Shown here: in pieces, positions 556 through 54,126 of the stretch
Layout of the letters: each line of letters begins with the position of its first letter
Numbering within the stretch: the first letter of the stretch is position 1
Source: a virus
Taxonomy: Duplodnaviria; Heunggongvirae; Uroviricota; Caudoviricetes
Virus record (IMG/VR): IMGVR_UViG_3300031920_000341
Location: 16,267 to 80,266 of that record
DNA length: 64,000 nt
Strand: one strand, 5' to 3'
Program-made: the position numbers and the translations under genes
The notes under the pieces: model-generated
Seen by the model: the letters and a program-made list of their open reading frames with translations, nothing else
What the model was told of the DNA's origin: nothing
Databases searched by the model: none

Positions 556-2172
556 TTATTTTTTATCTTCTACTTCATCAATAATTATACAGTCAAGTGT
601 TAAAAATATTTTTGCAACTGATACTGCACTTTCAATTGCAAGCCTAGTTACTTTGGCAGGATCAAGAATATGCATTTTATACATATCACCAAATTTCCTG
701 TTTTTAGCATCATAACCAAAGTTAACATCTACTGATTTACTCATTTCAAGTCGAACAAGTTCTTTGTTCTCTCCAGTATTGGCCACTATATGCTCCATAG
801 GACTCATTAGAGCGTCCATAACTATAGTCATACCCGTTTTTATATCATCAGTATCTTTATCACGATATAGGTTGTCTATGTGCTTTTTAAGTAGATATGA
901 ACAATGATAATATATTGTACCGCCACCAGGAACCACACCTTCTTTAAGTGCTGATTTTGCAGCATGTAATGCATCATCAATTCTATCACCCTGTTCGTAA
1001 ATTTCCATTTCTGAATTTCCACCAACTTTAATTGTAACAGCCGCGCCGTTTAATTTTGATATACGTTTTTTAAGTGATGCTTTTGGTTGTGCGTTTTTTT
1101 CTTCCTTCATATTACTGTTAAGTTGTGCAATACGTTCTTTAACACGTAATTTATTCTTTTTTTCTTTTATAAGAACTGTTTCTTTTTCAGAAATTACAAT
1201 TCTATCAACTGAACCAAGTATTGATAAATCTTTTATTTCAGCAAGTGATATTCCTGTTTCTGCTCCAACAACTGTACCATCAATAAATGCAGAAATATCT
1301 TCAAGTGCTTCAAGTTTGCTTTTAGCAAATCCAGGTGATTGTATAAGTGCAATTTCTAATCCATTCTGTAATCTATTTAAAATTATTGTTTGTGCCAACC
1401 TGGTTTCAAAATCTTCTGCAATTATAATAATGGGACGTTTCTCCATTTTAACTGTTTCCAAAATTGGTAACAATTCACTAAGTCTGTCCATCTTATCAGC
1501 ATACAATAATACAATTGCATTTGTAAATTCAGCTTTACCTGTTGACATATTTGTAATAAAATATGGTGAAAAATATCCTTTTTCAAACATCATACCTTCT
1601 TTTATTTCCAATTTTGTTTCAGGTTCTACGCCCTTTTCAACATCAACAATACCATCAGCGCCAACACGTTTAATTGCTTCTGCTATTAATTTACCAACTG
1701 GTTCATCATGATTTGCAGATATGATAGCAATATCTTCAAGTAATGGACTATCTTCATCAATTTGAATTGCGTTTTCTTCTACCATATCAGTAACAAACTT
1801 TAATGCTTGATCCATACCATCTTTAAGATGTATTGGATTGGCTTCAAGATTTAATTGTTTCCTGATTTTTTGAATTAAAGCAGTTGCTAGAACAGTTGCT
1901 GTTGTAGTTCCATCGCCCGCATCAAATGCCATTTTTGCTGTTACGTTTTTGATAATATTTGCCCCAATATTTTCACCTGGGTCTTTTAAAGTAAGTGCAT
2001 TCGCAACAGTTACACCATCTTTTGTTACATGTGTTAATCCTCTGTGTATCGCAACATGGCGTCCACCAGGCCCAAGAGTGCTAGATACAGCAGTATATAA
2101 TTTTTCAATTCCATTATATACTACATTTTTTGCTTCTTCTCCTGTTAAAAAAGTTTTACTATTATTACTCAT
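556..2172 (-). CDS. groEL: Chaperonin GroEL (phage-encoded)
   Basis: TLGPGGR, TKDGVTVA, AGDGTTTATVLA and EGVVPGGG motifs; 538 aa; no GGM tail. Confidence 0.97.
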   Translation of the reverse strand: MSNNSKTFLTGEEAKNVVYNGIEKLYTAVSSTLGPGGRHVAIHRGLTHVTKDGVTVANALTLKDPGENIGANIIKNVTAKMAFDAGDGTTTATVLATALIQKIRKQLNLEANPIHLKDGMDQALKFVTDMVEENAIQIDEDSPLLEDIAIISANHDEPVGKLIAEAIKRVGADGIVDVEKGVEPETKLEIKEGMMFEKGYFSPYFITNMSTGKAEFTNAIVLLYADKMDRLSELLPILETVKMEKRPIIIIAEDFETRLAQTIILNRLQNGLEIALIQSPGFAKSKLEALEDISAFIDGTVVGAETGISLAEIKDLSILGSVDRIVISEKETVLIKEKKNKLRVKERIAQLNSNMKEEKNAQPKASLKKRISKLNGAAVTIKVGGNSEMEIYEQGDRIDDALHAAKSALKEGVVPGGGTIYYHCSYLLKKHIDNLYRDKDTDDIKTGMTIVMDALMSPMEHIVANTGENKELVRLEMSKSVDVNFGYDAKNRKFGDMYKMHILDPAKVTRLAIESAVSVAKIFLTLDCIIIDEVEDKK

Positions 2173-2507
2173 AAATCATGTTTTTTTTTAAAGTATTCGT
2201 TTTCATTACGTAAAAATTGAAAATTTTTTTCAATTGTTTTGCAGTTATCTTGGAAACTGTTAACCAATTCCGGTGTCAAATAAAACCATTCTCCTCGTTT
2301 ATTTTTATGACGAAGCATATTATGCATCGCTGTCTCGATCATTATAGCAAATTCACTTTCGTATTGATCTACTACAATTAAATCGGAATCATTCCCTGTT
2401 TGTAATTGTTTAAGACGTTTAAGACGTTGTGGATCTTTTCTTGTAAATCCTATCTTATATGTTTCTTCATCGTTTTCTTTTTTAGCGATTAAATATATGT
2501 AAGGCAA
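2169..2507 (-). CDS. GIY-YIG-like T5orf172/MUG113 family nuclease
   Basis: YIYLI...YKIGFT...RLKQLQTGN...E..MH...RGEWF pattern. The likely start is TTG at 2507, just after the polymerase stop; the ORF-track start at 2573 overlaps the polymerase gene. Confidence 0.8.
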   Translation of the reverse strand: MPYIYLIAKKENDEETYKIGFTRKDPQRLKRLKQLQTGNDSDLIVVDQYESEFAIMIETAMHNMLRHKNKRGEWFYLTPELVNSFQDNCKTIEKNFQFLRNENEYFKKKHDL

Positions 2508-2511
2508 TTCA

Positions 2512-4230
2512 TTATTCTGTTTTTTCTTGTGATTCGTTAGCTTCTTGTTCAATTTCTTCAGGCGGCGGAGCATCTGCTACAATAAATGCATCATTTATTA
2601 TATGTATAGCACCATTTACTGAATAGTTTTTAATTCGTTTCAAAAAGTCAAGTGATAATTCATATGTAAATTTACTATATGTTTTTTTAACAACAGGTGC
2701 AAGGGTTTCATTATTCATAATAAAACCATATGTTCCCTTTTCTGGTTTATATGCTTTTATTTTTTTACTAAACTCAACATAAACTTCTTTATCCATTTCA
2801 GTAAGTTGACTAAAAAATTCTGTTTTTTGTTTTTTCTTAAGTTGATCGTTTCTCTTACGTTTAATATACTTTGCTAATTCAAATTTAGGAACAACTTCAG
2901 ATAATAAACCATATGTCGATACACTTGCTATATATTCATCTTCATGTTTTTTTGGAACCTCAAGTAATGAATTAAGAATATAAGGATATAAAATCCTTGG
3001 TATTTCTTTATATTCAAGTGTTTCATTATTTATTACATATAATGGATATAAATCATCATCATTAATTGTTCTTTTAACTTTTGGTGCATTATATTTAACT
3101 GAACGTTTTAAACTACGGTCAACAGCCTGTGAGCCCATTGCAACTAATAATTTATTTACCGGTTCAACTACAGTCTGAAAAAATTGCTCATTGTAATCAA
3201 CAGGAAATGCAAACTCAATTGGATAATTACCAGGAATGTATCCAAATACATTCATTTCTTCATTATCAGAATGCTTTGCATAATAAAATTTAATTTTAGC
3301 GCCTTCACGTATTTTATAGTACTTTCCAATTTTAGTTTCATTTATCATAAAATTATAATATAAAGAAGCTCTACTATTAATAGGCATTCCTTTTGGAATT
3401 TCTAATACTGTATCATCTGGTACGTATTCATTATACTTCTTTACAAATTTATTGAAACTAATATCTTCTACATCATTATTTTCATAACCCTTACGCATTT
3501 TCTTAAGATGAGGTATTATATCTTTTTCAAGAATGGTTTCCTTACCTTTATCTAACATGATTTCAACAAGCTTACGTTGTTGATCACGTGCCCACTTTGG
3601 TATAGATGCTTGTGCTAATCCGATTCCACGTGCTTTGATTTTATATTTAGCTGTTAAATCCCGGTGATCAGCAATTTTAATAACGTAATGTTTCTTACCT
3701 GTCCATATTCCAGAATATGAAATATTTTCAAGTGCGAAGTTCATATGGTTTTCTGTATTGTAACTACTCGAATATTCTTTAAATGCATTATTAAGAAAAC
3801 TTGAAAATCTAAAATCAATTATCTTTTTATTAAATTCAATTTGTTTGATATTTGATAATTGATAATTTTCTATTGAGGAATATGCTAAATCAAAATTAAT
3901 ATATGTTGAATCAGTATCTGAATAAATTGCACCCTCTATTGATGGTTTATTAATCTTTAAATGAGATATACCCAAATGTTCATGTAATTCTTTATCAAGA
4001 TGCCATCTTTCACGGAAATAATAATTAACTGCAGCAATACTATATTTAATAAGATCTTGTCCTTGTAAAGTAATACTCTGTGCAATATTTCTATCATGAA
4101 AATTAAACCACTTATTACCAAAAGCACCATAGATACTATTAATAATAATCTTTATTGCATATTGTTGTTGATTAAGATACGCAATACGTTTCTTAATATC
4201 CTTTATTCGATCTTCTTTAGATTGTTCCAT
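2512..4230 (-). CDS. Family B DNA polymerase, C-terminal subunit (second fingers helix, palm, thumb, extension)
   Basis: Motif B KIIINSIYGAFGN, SITLQGQ, motif C IYSDTDS, KKHY. Lacks the exonuclease domain and motif A. Confidence 0.92.
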   Translation of the reverse strand: MEQSKEDRIKDIKKRIAYLNQQQYAIKIIINSIYGAFGNKWFNFHDRNIAQSITLQGQDLIKYSIAAVNYYFRERWHLDKELHEHLGISHLKINKPSIEGAIYSDTDSTYINFDLAYSSIENYQLSNIKQIEFNKKIIDFRFSSFLNNAFKEYSSSYNTENHMNFALENISYSGIWTGKKHYVIKIADHRDLTAKYKIKARGIGLAQASIPKWARDQQRKLVEIMLDKGKETILEKDIIPHLKKMRKGYENNDVEDISFNKFVKKYNEYVPDDTVLEIPKGMPINSRASLYYNFMINETKIGKYYKIREGAKIKFYYAKHSDNEEMNVFGYIPGNYPIEFAFPVDYNEQFFQTVVEPVNKLLVAMGSQAVDRSLKRSVKYNAPKVKRTINDDDLYPLYVINNETLEYKEIPRILYPYILNSLLEVPKKHEDEYIASVSTYGLLSEVVPKFELAKYIKRKRNDQLKKKQKTEFFSQLTEMDKEVYVEFSKKIKAYKPEKGTYGFIMNNETLAPVVKKTYSKFTYELSLDFLKRIKNYSVNGAIHIINDAFIVADAPPPEEIEQEANESQEKTE

Positions 4231-4249
4231 ATAAAAAGTTTAATTATTA

Positions 4250-4276
4250 ATTATATGAATAAAATCATTATAGTTT
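4250..4276 (-). promoter_or_regulatory. Putative early/middle promoter AAACT-N16-TATAAT
   Basis: Exact motif 20 nt upstream of the polymerase C-subunit ATG; recurs with the same spacing elsewhere. Confidence 0.65.
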
Positions 4277-4280
4277 TTAA

Positions 4281-4605
4281 TTATAACTTTTTGTTTATGG
4301 TTTCGGTATGAAAATTTTGTTCTTTGTATATTTTCATACGATCATCAGCATGTTTTTTTGAATATTTACCAAAATCATCAATGATATCAATAACAGTAAG
4401 ATATTTCTTTGTTTTGAATTTACGAAGGCCACGACCAATTGATTGACGGATTAAAGTATATGCTTTATATGATTCAGTAAATATTATGTAAAATAAATTG
4501 CTAACATCAATACCTGTAGAAAATGTACCGTCAATAAGAGGCAACCATATTAGTTGCCTCTTTATTAATTTCCTTTATGTTTTTATGAAATGTAACTTTT
4601 GCCAT
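4281..4605 (-). CDS. uvsW: UvsW helicase C-terminal fragment (motifs V-VI), interrupted by a frame change at 4533-4530
   Basis: 4605-4531 encodes MAKVTFHKNIKEINKEATNMVASY*. Skipping TGAC gives GTFSTGIDVSNL...LIRQSIGRGLRK...VIDIIDD, matching T4 UvsW VASYGVFSTG...QTIGRVLR. Confidence 0.75.
4531..4568 (-). promoter_or_regulatory. RNA hairpin enclosing GAGG, ATG-GTT-GCC-TCT-TAT and the TGA stop
   Basis: TTAATAAAGAGGCAAC-TAATATG-GTTGCCTCTTATTGA: 10-bp perfect stem, extendable to ~16 bp with one bulge and G-U pairs. Confidence 0.75.
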
Positions 4606-4665
4606 GTCTTTTATATTTTTTAATATCTATATCAGTCATGATAAGTTTTTTAATTATATATTTAC

Positions 4666-6087
4666 TTATTTATATGAGTTTATCCAAGAATCTAATATAT
4701 CATCACCAACTATTATATCTTTAGCATATTTTATTTTCCCATTAGTTAATTTAACGTTTGTATATTGATTTACTTTTATTTTAATATCATTTAATTCAAT
4801 AATTGTAACTAATTCTAAATTATCCATAATATTTATATAATCGTCTCTATCATTTTCATCAACATTACCATCAATATAAAAAACATTAGTATTAGATTCT
4901 TTTAAATTTTGATATAGTTTATAACCATACTTATCTTTAACATTATTGAAAAGAAATAATTTATTGTTTGGTAATGCGCTAGCTAGTTTTTTTATGAATT
5001 CCATTCTAAGTGGATGCTTTATTATTGTTTGTCTTTCAAAATCAAATAATTCTCCGGCAAATTTTATTCTAGCATCGCCTTTAAGTTCATTACCTTTTGC
5101 TTTGAATTTCATATAATCATTAACTAATTCATCATTCTTTGGATATTCTAATATAATACGTTTAACTGTTACTTCTGGTGCATATCCATCCTTTATAAGT
5201 TGATGTGTTTCATATTCATATACAAATGGCCCAAAGAATTTCTGTACTGTAAGGAAACTTGATTTAGTTCTATTTTCAATTAAAGTTCCAGATAATCCAA
5301 ATCGTGTATGTAAAGTCCCACATGAATTAAGAATATTTTTAATACTATCACCTTTAATTCCATGTGCTTCATCTACACCAATATGATATACTTTTTTAAA
5401 ATCTTCTTTTTTTCTTCTAAGTAAACTTTGATATGTACTTATAACAATTTCGGCTTCATCAAATTTCTTTTGATTAAATTTACTTTTACCGCCAAAATAT
5501 GCTATTTTAATTGGAACTGATCCATTATTATAATTTTGTGTAAATCTTTTATATGTCTGTGATGATAGGCCTTTCTTAGGTACAACAATTAACATTTTAT
5601 GATTAACATCAATTTCTTTTGTCACTTTAAGATACATTGCAATTATAAAAAATATTACTGTTTTACCCGCAGCTGTAGATAAATCAGCGGCGGCATATTT
5701 ATATTTGAGTAAATTATATGCTGATTCATATTGGTAGTATCTTAATTCTTTTACATCAGTACCTTTAAAAATTGTACTAAGAAATTTATCGTAATGTTCT
5801 TTTGTTATATCACGCATAAATTCTTTTATTCCATCAATTTTAACTGTATATTGTGGTCTATCATGGAAAAATTTTAATAATTCATGCCATAAACCAAATG
5901 GTAGTTTATAACCCACAAAGAATCTATCCCATCCATCCCATGCACCTGATCGATATGCTGGATCAAAAAAGAAACTATCTCTTTCTCGTTTAAAAAAGCT
6001 TCTTAATTCCTGTAATGCATGATCATTAGGATATGAAGTTAAGATAAGGTGTTTGTAATCGTTTGTTGTTTTAAATACAAATTCCAT
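4666..6087 (-). CDS. uvsW: UvsW SF2 helicase, N-terminal fragment with C-terminal Hint-like tail
   Basis: WDGWDRF, LRYYQ (Q motif), TAAGKT (Walker A), VDEAH, GLSGT, FYIDGNV. Ends before motif V with a ~45-aa tail ...VKLTNGKIKYAKDIIVGDDI. Confidence 0.92.
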   Translation of the reverse strand: MEFVFKTTNDYKHLILTSYPNDHALQELRSFFKRERDSFFFDPAYRSGAWDGWDRFFVGYKLPFGLWHELLKFFHDRPQYTVKIDGIKEFMRDITKEHYDKFLSTIFKGTDVKELRYYQYESAYNLLKYKYAAADLSTAAGKTVIFFIIAMYLKVTKEIDVNHKMLIVVPKKGLSSQTYKRFTQNYNNGSVPIKIAYFGGKSKFNQKKFDEAEIVISTYQSLLRRKKEDFKKVYHIGVDEAHGIKGDSIKNILNSCGTLHTRFGLSGTLIENRTKSSFLTVQKFFGPFVYEYETHQLIKDGYAPEVTVKRIILEYPKNDELVNDYMKFKAKGNELKGDARIKFAGELFDFERQTIIKHPLRMEFIKKLASALPNNKLFLFNNVKDKYGYKLYQNLKESNTNVFYIDGNVDENDRDDYINIMDNLELVTIIELNDIKIKVNQYTNVKLTNGKIKYAKDIIVGDDILDSWINSYK

Positions 6088-15813: not shown

Positions 15814-17285
15814 TGGGTGTTAAATTAAAAACATATACTCAGCCAACAATACCATTAAAAGAAATGGCAATAATGGATACTGAAACACCTGATAATGAAG
15901 TAGGTGCTGAAGATACATCAGTATTAAAAAGTAGATTAACAGGTAGAATATCGCCATATCTTAAAATTGATGGATTTGTTTTGGATCATCATTCTATTAT
16001 ATCAATGGAAATAGATATTAAAGGAAATATACCAAAATATTCATTTACAATAATTGATAAAAATGGTGTATTTGCATCAAACCATATTCCAAAAAGCGAT
16101 ATTATAGCCAATTTATATATAAGATCTAGTAATGATACATATAAACCTATTCGTAATGATATTTATATAACACAGATTACTCCACTTGGTAGAGGAACTC
16201 CAGCTGAAGCATCTGAGGGTAAGGGTAATACGTATTTAATAAAGGGTATATTATTTATACCTAATATTAGTGACAAAAGCACAGCAAAGGCTTATCCTGG
16301 TACATCTAAAAATGCTTTACTTAAAATATCAGAAAATTTAAAATTAGGATTTGTTACAAATGAAGATGTAACAGTAGATTCTATGAATTGGCTTAAGCTT
16401 GATTCATATTATCAAGCAATAAATGATATAACGAAAAGTGCATATAAAAATGAAAATAGTTTTTATGATTGGTTTATTGATCCTTATTATTGTTTAAATT
16501 TTATTAATATTTCTGATATGCTTAATAGTGATGATAATTGGGATTATTTTATTCCGCAATTTGTTGGCGGTATTAAATATTTGAAAACATCATCACGTGG
16601 CGGCGGAGCAAAAGAACCTATTAAAAATATTGAAAATTCCGATATACCATTAATGCTTTCTAATTTATCTAATTTATCCGGTCTTGATAATTTTATTTCA
16701 TCATATAAATTAGTTACAAAACAAGGTTTAACATTAAATGAATATTCATATATGCATGGGTTAAATTTTTATGAGAGTACTGAACCATATAAAGAACCGA
16801 GTGAAAATTTTGTTAGTTATAATTTATCATCATATGAGATGTATAAAATAAAAAATACTGATATTAAAGATGTTAAAAGATATACTTATGGCGGTATAGA
16901 ATATCACAATGGACATGAATTTTATGTACATGCACAGACAATGAATAAGAAAAATTTATCTGAATTAAATAATATAAACCTTGTAGTTGAAACCGATGAA
17001 GTAAATTTTCATATAGTACGTGGTATGCGTATTCCTGTATTTATAATTAAAGAAGGCTTAGAAACAAGAAATGAGGATACTGATTCACAATTAGAAGATA
17101 ATAAAAGTAAAGCATTGAAGAAGATAGAAGATATTTTACAAATTAATATAAGTAATGTATTAACAGGATATTATTTTGTTCGCGGAATCAAATACACATA
17201 TGGTTTAAGCAATAGAGATGGATACTTCTTTAAAACAGAATTTACATTGGCAAAAACTGTATGGGAAGATTTTTTTAAAAATTAA
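15813..17285 (+). CDS. Putative baseplate hub protein (gp27/VgrG-like)
   Basis: Position between gp53-like and gp5-like genes; C-terminal LTGYYFVRGIKYTY...TEFTLAK hub-like ending. Confidence 0.5.
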   Translation: MGVKLKTYTQPTIPLKEMAIMDTETPDNEVGAEDTSVLKSRLTGRISPYLKIDGFVLDHHSIISMEIDIKGNIPKYSFTIIDKNGVFASNHIPKSDIIANLYIRSSNDTYKPIRNDIYITQITPLGRGTPAEASEGKGNTYLIKGILFIPNISDKSTAKAYPGTSKNALLKISENLKLGFVTNEDVTVDSMNWLKLDSYYQAINDITKSAYKNENSFYDWFIDPYYCLNFINISDMLNSDDNWDYFIPQFVGGIKYLKTSSRGGGAKEPIKNIENSDIPLMLSNLSNLSGLDNFISSYKLVTKQGLTLNEYSYMHGLNFYESTEPYKEPSENFVSYNLSSYEMYKIKNTDIKDVKRYTYGGIEYHNGHEFYVHAQTMNKKNLSELNNINLVVETDEVNFHIVRGMRIPVFIIKEGLETRNEDTDSQLEDNKSKALKKIEDILQINISNVLTGYYFVRGIKYTYGLSNRDGYFFKTEFTLAKTVWEDFFKN

Positions 17286-52728: not shown

Positions 52729-54126
52729 TTATTTTTCTAATTCTCTAAGTTCTTCTTCAAGATCTTTTATTTCATTTTGAACTTCAACCCTTAATCCATA
52801 TAGATAAACTAAAAGTTCTTTTGTAACTGAGTCGAATTCAAGTGTAAATACAGTATTGTTTTTTGTTATTGTATATGAACCAGGCATTAACTCATTTAAA
52901 TTAATTTGATCTGCTTGTCCAAGCAGACTATCCATTGATATATTGAATTGTATTTGAATATTTGGATACATTGATGAAAAGTCAAAACATACAATATTCC
53001 TATAAAATCCAGGTATCGGTTCTTTTACATATGCTCCTTTATATTTACTTTTATCATCTGTTTGAAATTTATTTTCTTTAGTTGTATGTAGATTACGATC
53101 AAGTAATCTTTTTATAATCATAAGCTCAGTCATAAATACTGGTCCAAATATTCTACTTATCTCTGTTCGAGCAATTGCAGAAATAGCAAATGATGCTTTT
53201 AATTGTTCTAAATCTTCATCAATCAATTGGGGTAATATCGTATCTATTATGTTATACTTTAAAAACTTAAAATGTTTTTGTTGAAGTTCATAAAAACTTT
53301 CACTATGTGTCAATTTCTTAATTCCAAGCACCCTGTTCGACGTATAATCTAAAGAGTGGTTTTCCATATCATCTAATGGTTTAAACTTCTTCAGTGCGTC
53401 TATATAATCAATAATACCCATATGAATAGGTATATTCTCTCTACCGAATGTTTCATGCGAAAGTAAATACTTTGTAATATCAATTTTATTATGCTTTACT
53501 GTTCTATTGTAAATGGTTTGCCAGTCAAAATTAATAACATTCCATCCGGTTAAGAAACCTATCTTAGGCATAAAATATTGAACAAATGCCGTAAGTAAAT
53601 CCTTTTCTGTTTTAAAGTAAGTATAGTATAACTTAAACTTTCTATTAAATGGTAAAAAGTATTCATTTACTTCAACCTCAAGTTGAATTCGTTCTTGATC
53701 ATCTAAATATTTTGTAGTTAATACATAAATATTATCACCTTCTACTAATGTAAGTGCATTAATTGGACAAGGTGCAATTTCAGGATCAGGAAATTTATTG
53801 CTTTTATCAACTTCAACTTCAATATCTACATAAAATACTTTTGGTGGTGCAACCGAAGATATTTTATCCCAATCATCTTGTGTAAATCGTTCATGCATTA
53901 TTTCTTCAATACGATAACGATTTAAATAATGAGTTCTCTTTTTAGAAACATAACGTTTATCCCAATTTCTACCTTCTGGTGGTCCATCACCAGCTGTATG
54001 AGGTACCCATTCGAATAAATCTTTTGATGTTATCTTTTTCTTAATATAATCAAGATTTCCTTCTTCATCATAATATGATACTAAAAGAGCTTCATGATTT
54101 TTATTATATTCTGCACCTACGAGCAT
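52729..54126 (-). CDS. Family B DNA polymerase, N-terminal subunit (3'-5' exonuclease, motif A, first fingers helix)
   Basis: ExoI YVDIEV, ExoII GWNVINFDW, SLDY, ExoIII YNIIDT, YKGAYVKEP, motif A FDFSSMYPN. Ends LRVEVQNEIKDLEEELRELEK*. Confidence 0.93.
   Translation of the reverse strand: MLVGAEYNKNHEALLVSYYDEEGNLDYIKKKITSKDLFEWVPHTAGDGPPEGRNWDKRYVSKKRTHYLNRYRIEEIMHERFTQDDWDKISSVAPPKVFYVDIEVEVDKSNKFPDPEIAPCPINALTLVEGDNIYVLTTKYLDDQERIQLEVEVNEYFLPFNRKFKLYYTYFKTEKDLLTAFVQYFMPKIGFLTGWNVINFDWQTIYNRTVKHNKIDITKYLLSHETFGRENIPIHMGIIDYIDALKKFKPLDDMENHSLDYTSNRVLGIKKLTHSESFYELQQKHFKFLKYNIIDTILPQLIDEDLEQLKASFAISAIARTEISRIFGPVFMTELMIIKRLLDRNLHTTKENKFQTDDKSKYKGAYVKEPIPGFYRNIVCFDFSSMYPNIQIQFNISMDSLLGQADQINLNELMPGSYTITKNNTVFTLEFDSVTKELLVYLYGLRVEVQNEIKDLEEELRELEK

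Follow-up and report, generated by a model that had tools for sequence, protein, structure and literature searches.

We analyzed a stretch of 64,000 nt (hereafter the window; positions 16,267 to 80,266) from the Caudoviricetes record IMGVR_UViG_3300031920_000341, a viral record of 208 kb and 29% GC, in which the uvsW helicase gene is broken in two. The first piece ends in a 50-aa non-helicase tail related to the Hint domains of inteins, the second begins with a short leader, and the downstream helicase motifs lie in the +1 frame relative to that leader, past an RNA hairpin and an in-frame UGA. The same arrangement recurs in distantly related viruses; the element is real and widespread, and represents a new variant of the endonuclease-made 'genes in pieces'. 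Our favored explanation, which we hold with moderate confidence, is that the locus is the relic of a homing endonuclease cassette that entered uvsW, with +1 recoding of the second piece and non-covalent reassembly of the two products. The analysis started from a prediction made from the letters of the window alone, namely that uvsW is split and possibly held together by a splicing-dead, permuted half-Hint module. What it had observed was confirmed in part and its interpretation partly supported; it overlooked the +1 frameshift with its hairpin and the homing endonuclease origin of the split. The parts of the locus, all on the minus strand, are as follows.

4819..6087, minus strand: uvsW N-fragment proper, with UvsW_N, the first RecA-like domain (RecA1, motifs I-III) and the first half of the second (RecA2), up to ...DYINIMDN; delimited by Pfam and by alignment to intact homologues
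4669..4818, minus strand: 50-aa C-terminal tail, very probably a half-Hint relic, modeled as four strands and the DDILDSWI helix, without the catalytic residues
4666..4668, minus strand: stop codon TAA of the N-fragment, at the same place in every relative
4606..4665, minus strand: spacer of 60 nt, an empty site where relatives carry a gene for an HNH homing endonuclease of ~318 aa
4534..4605, minus strand: start of the C-fragment in frame A, with ATG, an N-terminal extension of ~18 aa and the host beta-strand ending in VASY
4536..4562, minus strand: RNA hairpin with a 10-bp core stem, whose 3' arm consists of the Val-Ala-Ser codons and whose last base is the first of the Tyr codon
4530..4536, minus strand: putative shift site UAU UGA C, with four extra bases (TGAC) relative to the intact TAY GGN
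4281..4532, minus strand: rest of the C-fragment in the +1 frame, with motif V (DGTFSTGID), motif VI (QSIGRG) and the C-terminal part, ending in TAA at 4281..4283

The upstream open reading frame (ORF; 4666..6087, minus strand) encodes 473 aa with Pfam matches to UvsW_N, DEAD and ResIII. The features of a UvsW-type superfamily 2 (SF2) helicase are all present and shared between the pieces, with UvsW_N and motifs I-III in the first and motifs V-VI in the second. As originally described, the N-fragment leaves helicase sequence after ...IMDN and continues into the tail before its TAA. Intact relatives are ~510 aa long, and in these the helix ending in ...ME... is followed by a strand and motif V, ...VIVASYGTFSTGID. 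The separate start was also where it had been placed: a second ATG (4605..4603) lies 60 nt past the N-fragment stop in the same frame and opens a run of 24 codons, MAK...NMVASY. The second ORF was further thought to resume the helicase at MVASY, and this did not hold, as TGA (4533..4531) follows directly after VASY, and motif V with the remaining 83 codons to the final TAA is read in the +1 frame relative to MAK. With one base skipped, the C-fragment gives an unbroken alignment to the intact protein P0004 (52% identity, E 1e-22), from which the shifted reading differs at the junction by one extra Asp between ASY and GTF. The spacer of the window also holds an in-frame TGA-C. No second uvsW was found in the whole 208-kb record. 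A search for DNA similarity to phages returned nothing for the window locus, and for the shifted junction of a related locus (L112) it matched only one uncultured record. One element of the original description can be set aside here: the motif TATAAATA, suggestive of a T4 late promoter, does overlap the N-fragment stop (4667-4674, minus strand), but its frequency is not above chance, with 27 matches against 28.6 expected in the 29% GC window.

A survey of homologues, originally suggested as a check on the break point, showed that the split is not peculiar to the window. Relatives were collected by pattern and protein-guided scans of viral and metagenome contigs, and their frames were read by script. 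The order N-fragment, tail, stop, spacer, leader with terminal ASY, in-frame TGA and +1-frame motif V was seen in at least 17 distinct viral contigs, with helicase cores that are only ~37% identical. A protein relative, 39% identical, ends in the same tail (P0002). Of the 80 best uvsW loci in IMG/VR, 79 are uninterrupted at the split site. Spacers range from 5 to 1026 nt. In six loci (L005, L108, L112, L119, L120 and L127) the spacer holds an HNH ORF of ~318 aa that matches phrog_12434 (E 2.5e-20) as well as phrog_655, labeled 'homing endonuclease'; its relatives include the Mob-type HNH genes found in Ackermannviridae and in T4-like phages. Two spacers (L117 and L126) contain only remnants of the 3' end of this gene, and it is absent from the spacers of the window (60 nt), L102 (5 nt) and L118 (17 nt). 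In one locus (L114:1190-1978, minus strand) its place is taken by an ORF of 262 aa, rich in Gly, Ala and Thr, with weak matches to virion protein families in PHROGs. All combinations of endonuclease and frame change were found, namely the HNH gene with a shift, a shift without the gene (as in the window), the gene without a shift (Dickeya phage PP35), and neither (Vibrio phage D506 and locus L146). We read the missing HNH gene of the window as a secondary loss; the window represents a late, endonuclease-less stage in the usual life cycle of a homing endonuclease gene.

The sequence of events that we propose is the following. A cassette would have entered uvsW between the last helix and the beta-strand that precede helicase motif V, bringing along a stop, a restart and a short peptide extension for each piece, with an HNH endonuclease gene between the pieces that would since have been deleted in the window. 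The cassette would also have carried the TGAC insert, 30 bases into the restored host sequence. This insert puts a UGA in frame, and ribosomes would have to make a +1 move at UAU-UGA-C to produce the C-fragment of ~107 aa. The two polypeptides would then assemble into a helicase without a covalent bond, with the acidic half-Hint tail and the basic leader as candidate docking partners.

We looked at the tail first by sequence. A profile built from 12 tails was run against 1.84 billion representative proteins (E <= 1e-3) and found 87 protein clusters. In all of them the match lies within about 25 residues of the C-terminus, save for two partial matches to proteins other than UvsW (P0108 and P0115), in one of which (P0115) a bona fide Hint domain starts at the matched hairpin. 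Among ten tail-bearing proteins tested with Pfam, seven were helicase N-fragments and two were shorter fragments of such N-fragments. The tail is conserved across these clusters, and its ratio of nonsynonymous to synonymous differences (pN/pS) is below 1. Neither Pfam nor PHROGs recognized the tail, and a sequence search of the Protein Data Bank (PDB) with the tail profile returned only chance interleukin-13 rows with E above 0.6.

The derivation of the tail from a Hint domain, as originally proposed, was borne out by two further comparisons. Using hhalign, 77 aligned tails were compared with five inteins located at motif II of related uvsW genes, and 43 columns aligned onto the block B region (probability 73%, P 3e-5). 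An AlphaFold2 model of the tail, made from a 77-row alignment, has four strands and a terminal helix with a mean predicted local distance difference test score (pLDDT) of 91.7. In an exhaustive structural search with this model against 48,161 PDB chains, 34 chains scored Z>=2 and about 29 of these were inteins, a hedgehog Hog domain or bacterial intein-like (BIL) domains. The best match was PI-PfuI (Z 5.8, root-mean-square deviation 2.0 Å, 50 of 52 residues), and the tail aligns with residues 50-98 of the Npu DnaE N-intein. When the Foldseek list was re-aligned, inteins and BIL domains made up 27 of 27 listed rows, and the ESM Atlas neighbors of the tail region were likewise rich in Hint families. 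The domain is small and its Z values are modest; the argument rests on this near-exclusive family content. A T4 topoisomerase chain (8yo3_C) was the top Foldseek row (E 1.4), which would have pointed to the extension of T4 gp39; it was absent from the re-alignment by the second aligner, and we make no claim of that relationship.

The tail also cannot splice, again in line with what had been proposed. The helicase/tail junction has no conserved Cys, Ser or Thr that could serve as the block A nucleophile in the 77 aligned tails, and the columns aligned to the T..H of block B vary, with N..T in the window. The 13 leaders run directly into the host strand and show no HN or nucleophile junction of blocks F and G. 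Nor is there a complete Hint domain of ~130 aa with both pseudo-symmetric halves, as the non-helicase sequence amounts to a tail of ~50 aa and a leader of ~11-18 aa. As no splicing residue is conserved, the tail corresponds to the non-catalytic second half of an intein N-fragment. Given the profile comparison and the modeled fold, we consider the half-Hint assignment very probable.

Hint-type sequences occur elsewhere in these genes. The uvsW relatives P0045, P0010, P0118 and P0120 carry true inteins at helicase motif II (DEC|LHP...), the last of them at the P-loop as well. P0045 bears both the motif II intein and a C-terminal half-Hint tail, and uvsW is therefore a hotspot for selfish elements. 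In P0047, a tail-like module lies in frame inside RecA1 (residues ~220-270) of a uvsW N-fragment that is split as usual, which shows that the half-Hint unit can also occur as a mere decoration within a protein.

The leader is the counterpart of the tail on the second piece. Its specific part is 11-18 aa long, basic, and conserved with whole-codon insertions and deletions; it is kept in all loci examined, with a pN/pS of 0.4-0.55 in frame A. In two isolates without the frame change, Dickeya phage PP35 and Vibrio phage D506, the annotated C-fragment starts at the corresponding MKP..., and this start is therefore the real one. The notion of a permuted module, in which the leader supplies the strand that normally precedes the tail, fared less well. 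The HKNI segment of the leader does match best to the intein strand before block B, but 18 of 1000 column shuffles were as good and several lineages do not have the segment at all. It could equally be read as the first strand of a C-intein, which needs no permutation.

It had further been expected that tail and leader would pair in a common sheet. Because the N-fragment and the leader share one frame in the window, we built a read-through AlphaFold model comprising the N-terminal part of RecA2, the tail, the spacer and the leader, with stops read as Gly. The tail was again confidently folded (pLDDT 92-98), and the leader came out as a helix of low confidence (60-66), unpaired with the tail. 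This is a weak negative because half of RecA2 was missing and because the leader had no alignment depth, MAFFT having put the short leader peptides onto tail columns. The one line of support for a clasp is charge, with a mean of -4.9 for the tails and +1.7 for the first ten leader residues. The segments retained here are reportedly those that start split-intein assembly in Npu DnaE, as Shah et al. are said to have found in 2013. The acidic/basic polarity of tail and leader is that of natural split inteins (Dassa et al. 2009, PMC2677866). By this analogy the tail and the leader may form a docking pair, a suggestion we put forward tentatively; a non-covalent clasp is plausible.

An alternative to such a clasp is that the tail is a tolerated relic and that the pieces associate through the RecA2 core, with no contribution from tail or leader. 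The unpaired leader of the read-through model fits this, as does the P0047 module, which sits inside RecA1 where docking is not needed. In addition, the two halves of Aeromonas phage Aeh1 NrdA are described as still binding after deletion of their extensions, in the account cited by Manning & Atkins (bioRxiv 10.1101/2022.08.31.505936). Set against this are the presence of the tail in 87 clusters with invariant positions and a pN/pS below 1, its survival after loss of the endonuclease and even of the frameshift, the opposite charges of tail and leader, and the match of the retained parts to the assembly-starting segments of split inteins. We regard a functionless tail as unlikely, though well short of negligible.

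We then turned to the frame change. The stop at the shift is UGA in 17/17 loci, preceded by UAU, UAC or UGU (Tyr or Cys) and followed by C in 13 loci and by G in the others. Relative to the intact TAY GGN, the inserts are of 4 nt (TGAC) or 7 nt (TGAGGAC, TGTTGAC or TGAGAAC), always 1 modulo 3, and GAC is kept before GGN in 16/17 loci. UGA is rare in the window genome, where it ends 8 of 138 long ORFs, with TGAC ending one. GAC is a rare Asp codon (8% of Asp codons in this genome). Among 14 phage tRNAs, one, located outside the window (205841-205916), is a tRNA-Asp(GUC), cognate to the +1-frame GAC of the shift site; none of the 14 is a quadruplet-decoding or suppressor tRNA or has an odd anticodon loop.

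Selection acts on both frames. The C-fragment has a pN/pS of 0.24-0.56 in the +1 frame, with synonymous sites near saturation in all comparisons. Within groups that share both cassette and shift the values are 0.09-0.38, again at near-saturated pS, and no C-fragment is interrupted before its natural end. In the unshifted relatives (L146/L148, Dickeya PP35 and Vibrio D506), leader, strand and motif V form one continuous protein. A second type of shift site was found in two other lineages, L140-L144 (e.g. L141:3880-3915) and L152 (3885-3925), where a single extra T occurs at the Phe codon of GTFSTG (ACC TTT TTC or ACC TTT CTC). This site lies 9 nt downstream of the window-type site, its UUU-U and UUU-C let tRNA-Phe re-pair, and these loci have strong upstream hairpins of their own that end at their shift sites.

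The hairpin next to the window-type site was first noticed as an inverted repeat in a terminator scan. Its stem measures 10-14 bp across loci and its end lies 2 nt before the stop. In the window, its minimum free energy (MFE) is -18.5 kcal/mol (z -5.4), and none of 200 shuffles was as stable. Across 15 shifted loci the MFE is -20.0 +/- 1.7 kcal/mol, against -8.7 +/- 2.7 (minimum -13.7) in 56 intact genes, with no overlap between the two groups; the same region of the unshifted split allele L146 gives -9.7 kcal/mol. Differing loop lengths and 5' arms that were out of register hid the structure from RNAalifold run on a MAFFT alignment; the hairpin was instead assessed by per-sequence folds, a pair table and a covariance model. 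The covariance model, built from six loci, finds the hairpin in 17/17 shifted, 0/10 intact and 0/5 other split loci. In the alignment derived from it, 96.4% of cells are paired, compared with 33-62% in slid controls; 6 of 12 stem pairs show compensatory changes, and none of 500 shuffles reaches the observed covariation. For example, the Ser-codon wobble base forms an A-U, G-C, U-A or C-G pair depending on the locus. The hairpin probably helps by refolding behind the ribosome.

As far as sequence can tell, the frame change has the attributes of a programmed +1 event, being conserved across loci, with both frames selected and a conserved candidate stimulatory element at its side. We weighed these attributes against several points that speak against the favored account. 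A shift from UAU to AUU gives tRNA-Tyr no re-pairing, so this is not a classical slippery +1 site, and there is no Shine-Dalgarno-like element at the spacing seen in prfB. The alignment used to score the covariation had been fitted to the model, and it contains reverse-strand echoes of the palindrome. If the cassette invaded each lineage recently, part of the selection signal in the C-fragment would predate the shift. Finally, every locus has a +1-frame TTG (4 codons upstream of the junction) or ATT (1-2 codons upstream). Even so, programmed forward recoding at UAU-UGA-C appears likely to us, with a +1 shift preferred to a hop or to re-initiation.

The last of these points bears on a reading with three polypeptides and no frameshift, in which the 24-aa leader peptide is released and the C-fragment arises by coupled re-initiation at the nearby TTG or ATT once the hairpin has been opened. 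The hairpin buries the junction region together with a purine-rich, Shine-Dalgarno-like 5' arm, as in classical translational coupling, and since a TTG or ATT lies within 4 codons of the junction in each locus, re-initiation keeps a modest probability. Neither codon is universal: upstream of the junction, the +1 frame lacks ATG, GTG and TTG altogether in 5 of 16 loci, and L108 has no ATT. The frame-A strand ending in VASY is selected and exactly matches intact genes, which is sensible only if it is joined to motif V, and in the unshifted alleles leader, strand and motif V are indeed one protein. Insert lengths of 4, 7, 7 and 7 nt also keep a single frame relation. Re-initiation is, in our estimate, improbable.

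A short translational bypass over the 4- or 7-nt gap would restore the wild-type ...ASY-GTF... and is about as improbable, if not a little more so. It would account for an arrangement also seen in T4 gene 60, a take-off codon immediately followed by a stop and flanked by a hairpin, and for the strict retention of GAC before GGN noted above. Against it, there are no matched take-off and landing codons, and the gaps are always 1 modulo 3 and differ by whole codons, as if the remaining bases were decoded; a +1 shift is therefore favored over a hop. The single extra T of L140-144 and L152 falls at a Phe codon, at which simple +1 slippage allows perfect re-pairing.

That uvsW is simply a decaying pseudogene, its tail read-through and its frameshift damage, is very improbable. 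UvsW is not essential in T4, which counts in favor of decay, and invasions by homing endonucleases can inactivate genes. Yet all three reading frames are open and selected in every locus, with synonymous divergence (dS) saturated and pN/pS down to 0.09, and random extra stops or indels were not seen in the fragments of 17 loci. The tail is a confidently folded domain, the hairpin covaries, and the record has no second uvsW.

The least credible alternative is a self-splicing group I intron with an endonuclease, or an active split intein ligating the halves. In its favor, the interrupted uvsW of LIMEstone1 was published as carrying the putative intron I-LimI (PMC3296691), and the tail has a Hint fold in a gene whose relatives hold true inteins at motif II. 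Against it, no Rfam match was found at E up to 10 across 3800-5400, the supposed intron would be 22% GC, protein-coding and under codon-level selection, the ORFs of Vibrio D506 overlap by ATGA without any spacer, and an intein would have neither block A nucleophile, TxxH nor blocks F or G, and too short a leader. The absence of an Rfam match, the codon-level selection and the gene layout in isolates contradict the intron reading of LIMEstone1. The locus of Dickeya phage PP35 (L154; MG266157.1 88335-90929) shows that the LIMEstone-type 'intron' is the same cassette, with its endonuclease annotated only as 'homing endonuclease'. LIMEstone1/PP35 and D506 share with the window the break point, the tail and the MKP leader, and PP35 has the endonuclease gene between the pieces; unlike the window, these isolates have neither frameshift nor hairpin. 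A full-text literature search turned up no account of either the half-Hint tail or the frameshift.

The closest known system is the MobA/gene 60 cassette of T4 (gene 39 / mobA / gene 60, with a 50-nt bypass; Manning & Atkins). In T4-like phages, the HNH gene of the MobA element splits topoisomerase II, adding an extension of ~44 aa to gp39 and an N-terminal extension to gp60; host sequence is re-supplied and followed by a stop-containing bypass insert that protects the carrier from MobA, and in the course of decay the endonuclease is lost first and the bypass later, with the extensions remaining (bioRxiv 10.1101/2022.08.31.505936). The uvsW element resembles it in most of these respects. An HNH gene splits a conserved replication/repair gene, lengthening the first piece by ~44-50 aa at its C-terminus and the second at its N-terminus; a re-supplied host stretch is followed, a few tens of bases downstream, by a stop-bearing recoding insert with a 5' stem-loop; and first the endonuclease, then the insert disappears from a gene that remains split and keeps its extensions. 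Judged by the MobA/gene 60 analogy, the uvsW insert probably protects the carrier genome from its own endonuclease. The two also differ. The split gene is uvsW instead of topoisomerase II, and against the 50-nt gap of T4 the uvsW gap measures 4 or 7 nt (or 1). Its take-off and landing codons are not matched, its leader spans 11-18 aa against 44-45, and the uvsW extension is demonstrably half-Hint in character. The HNH gene is also absent from the window locus itself and present in six relatives.

Three other systems share parts of this architecture. In Aeh1, nrdA-a / mobE / nrdA-b likewise has an HNH gene inside an enzyme gene whose tailed polypeptides reassemble without splicing (Friedrich et al. 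2007, cited in PMC2677866 and by Manning & Atkins); it differs in the enzyme and, as far as that account is cited there, no recoding and no Hint relic are reported. The fractured genes of Dassa et al. 2009 (PMC2677866) consist of an N-gene with its N-intein part, a free-standing endonuclease gene, and a C-intein part with its C-gene, and their setting is phage replication genes in aquatic metagenomes. The uvsW relatives with an HNH gene have this gene order, and the uvsW tail corresponds in structure to the N-intein part adjoining the split. The inteins of the fractured genes, however, are whole and able to splice; uvsW keeps only the non-catalytic middle (~50 + ~15 aa), and therefore no ligation is possible. 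Finally, prfB, encoding release factor 2 (RF2), has at CUU UGA C an in-frame UGA followed by C, a move of one base forward to GAC (Asp) and an upstream stimulator, all as proposed for uvsW. In contrast to prfB, the P-site UAU of uvsW cannot re-pair, the stimulator would be an abutting hairpin and not a Shine-Dalgarno-like sequence 3 nt upstream, and no autoregulatory logic is evident.

It is possible, though the odds are in our view against it, that nature has, besides T4 gene 60, another family of recoding cassettes carried by endonucleases. In it, a mobile HNH element would keep its host helicase functional by combining a splicing-dead docking half, which holds the two polypeptides together, with a minimal stop-plus-hairpin signal for a +1 shift over a 4-base insert, and this insert would destroy the target of the endonuclease. 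The hairpin-abutting UAU-UGA would then be a new type of +1 stimulator. T4 gene 60 has long been an isolated curiosity; the uvsW signal is simpler, much shorter and tied to the same kind of selfish element. Its natural variants (4-nt, 7-nt, 1-nt and none) offer a ready mutational series for the role of a 5' hairpin and a weak stop in forward frameshifting. A single Hint half kept without splicing chemistry would be a natural example of the proposed half-domain ancestor, and the tail might serve as a small, splicing-free heterodimerization tag. There is also a consequence for annotation, since such uvsW genes currently appear in annotations as an intron or as unrelated ORFs, two or three in number, and the C-fragment is usually given a wrong start codon.

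Two further features of the window were recorded along the way. The family B DNA polymerase is also encoded in two genes, 48.5 kb apart, with an N part of 465 aa (52729..54126, minus strand) and a C part of 572 aa (2512..4230, minus strand). The break falls in the fingers helices just before motif B (KxxxNSxYG), and no Hint-like tail is evident on either end. Overlapping the 3' end of the polymerase C part by ~60 nt is an ORF of 134 aa with a T5orf172/MUG113 domain (2169..2573, minus strand), which may be another endonuclease-like mobile gene.

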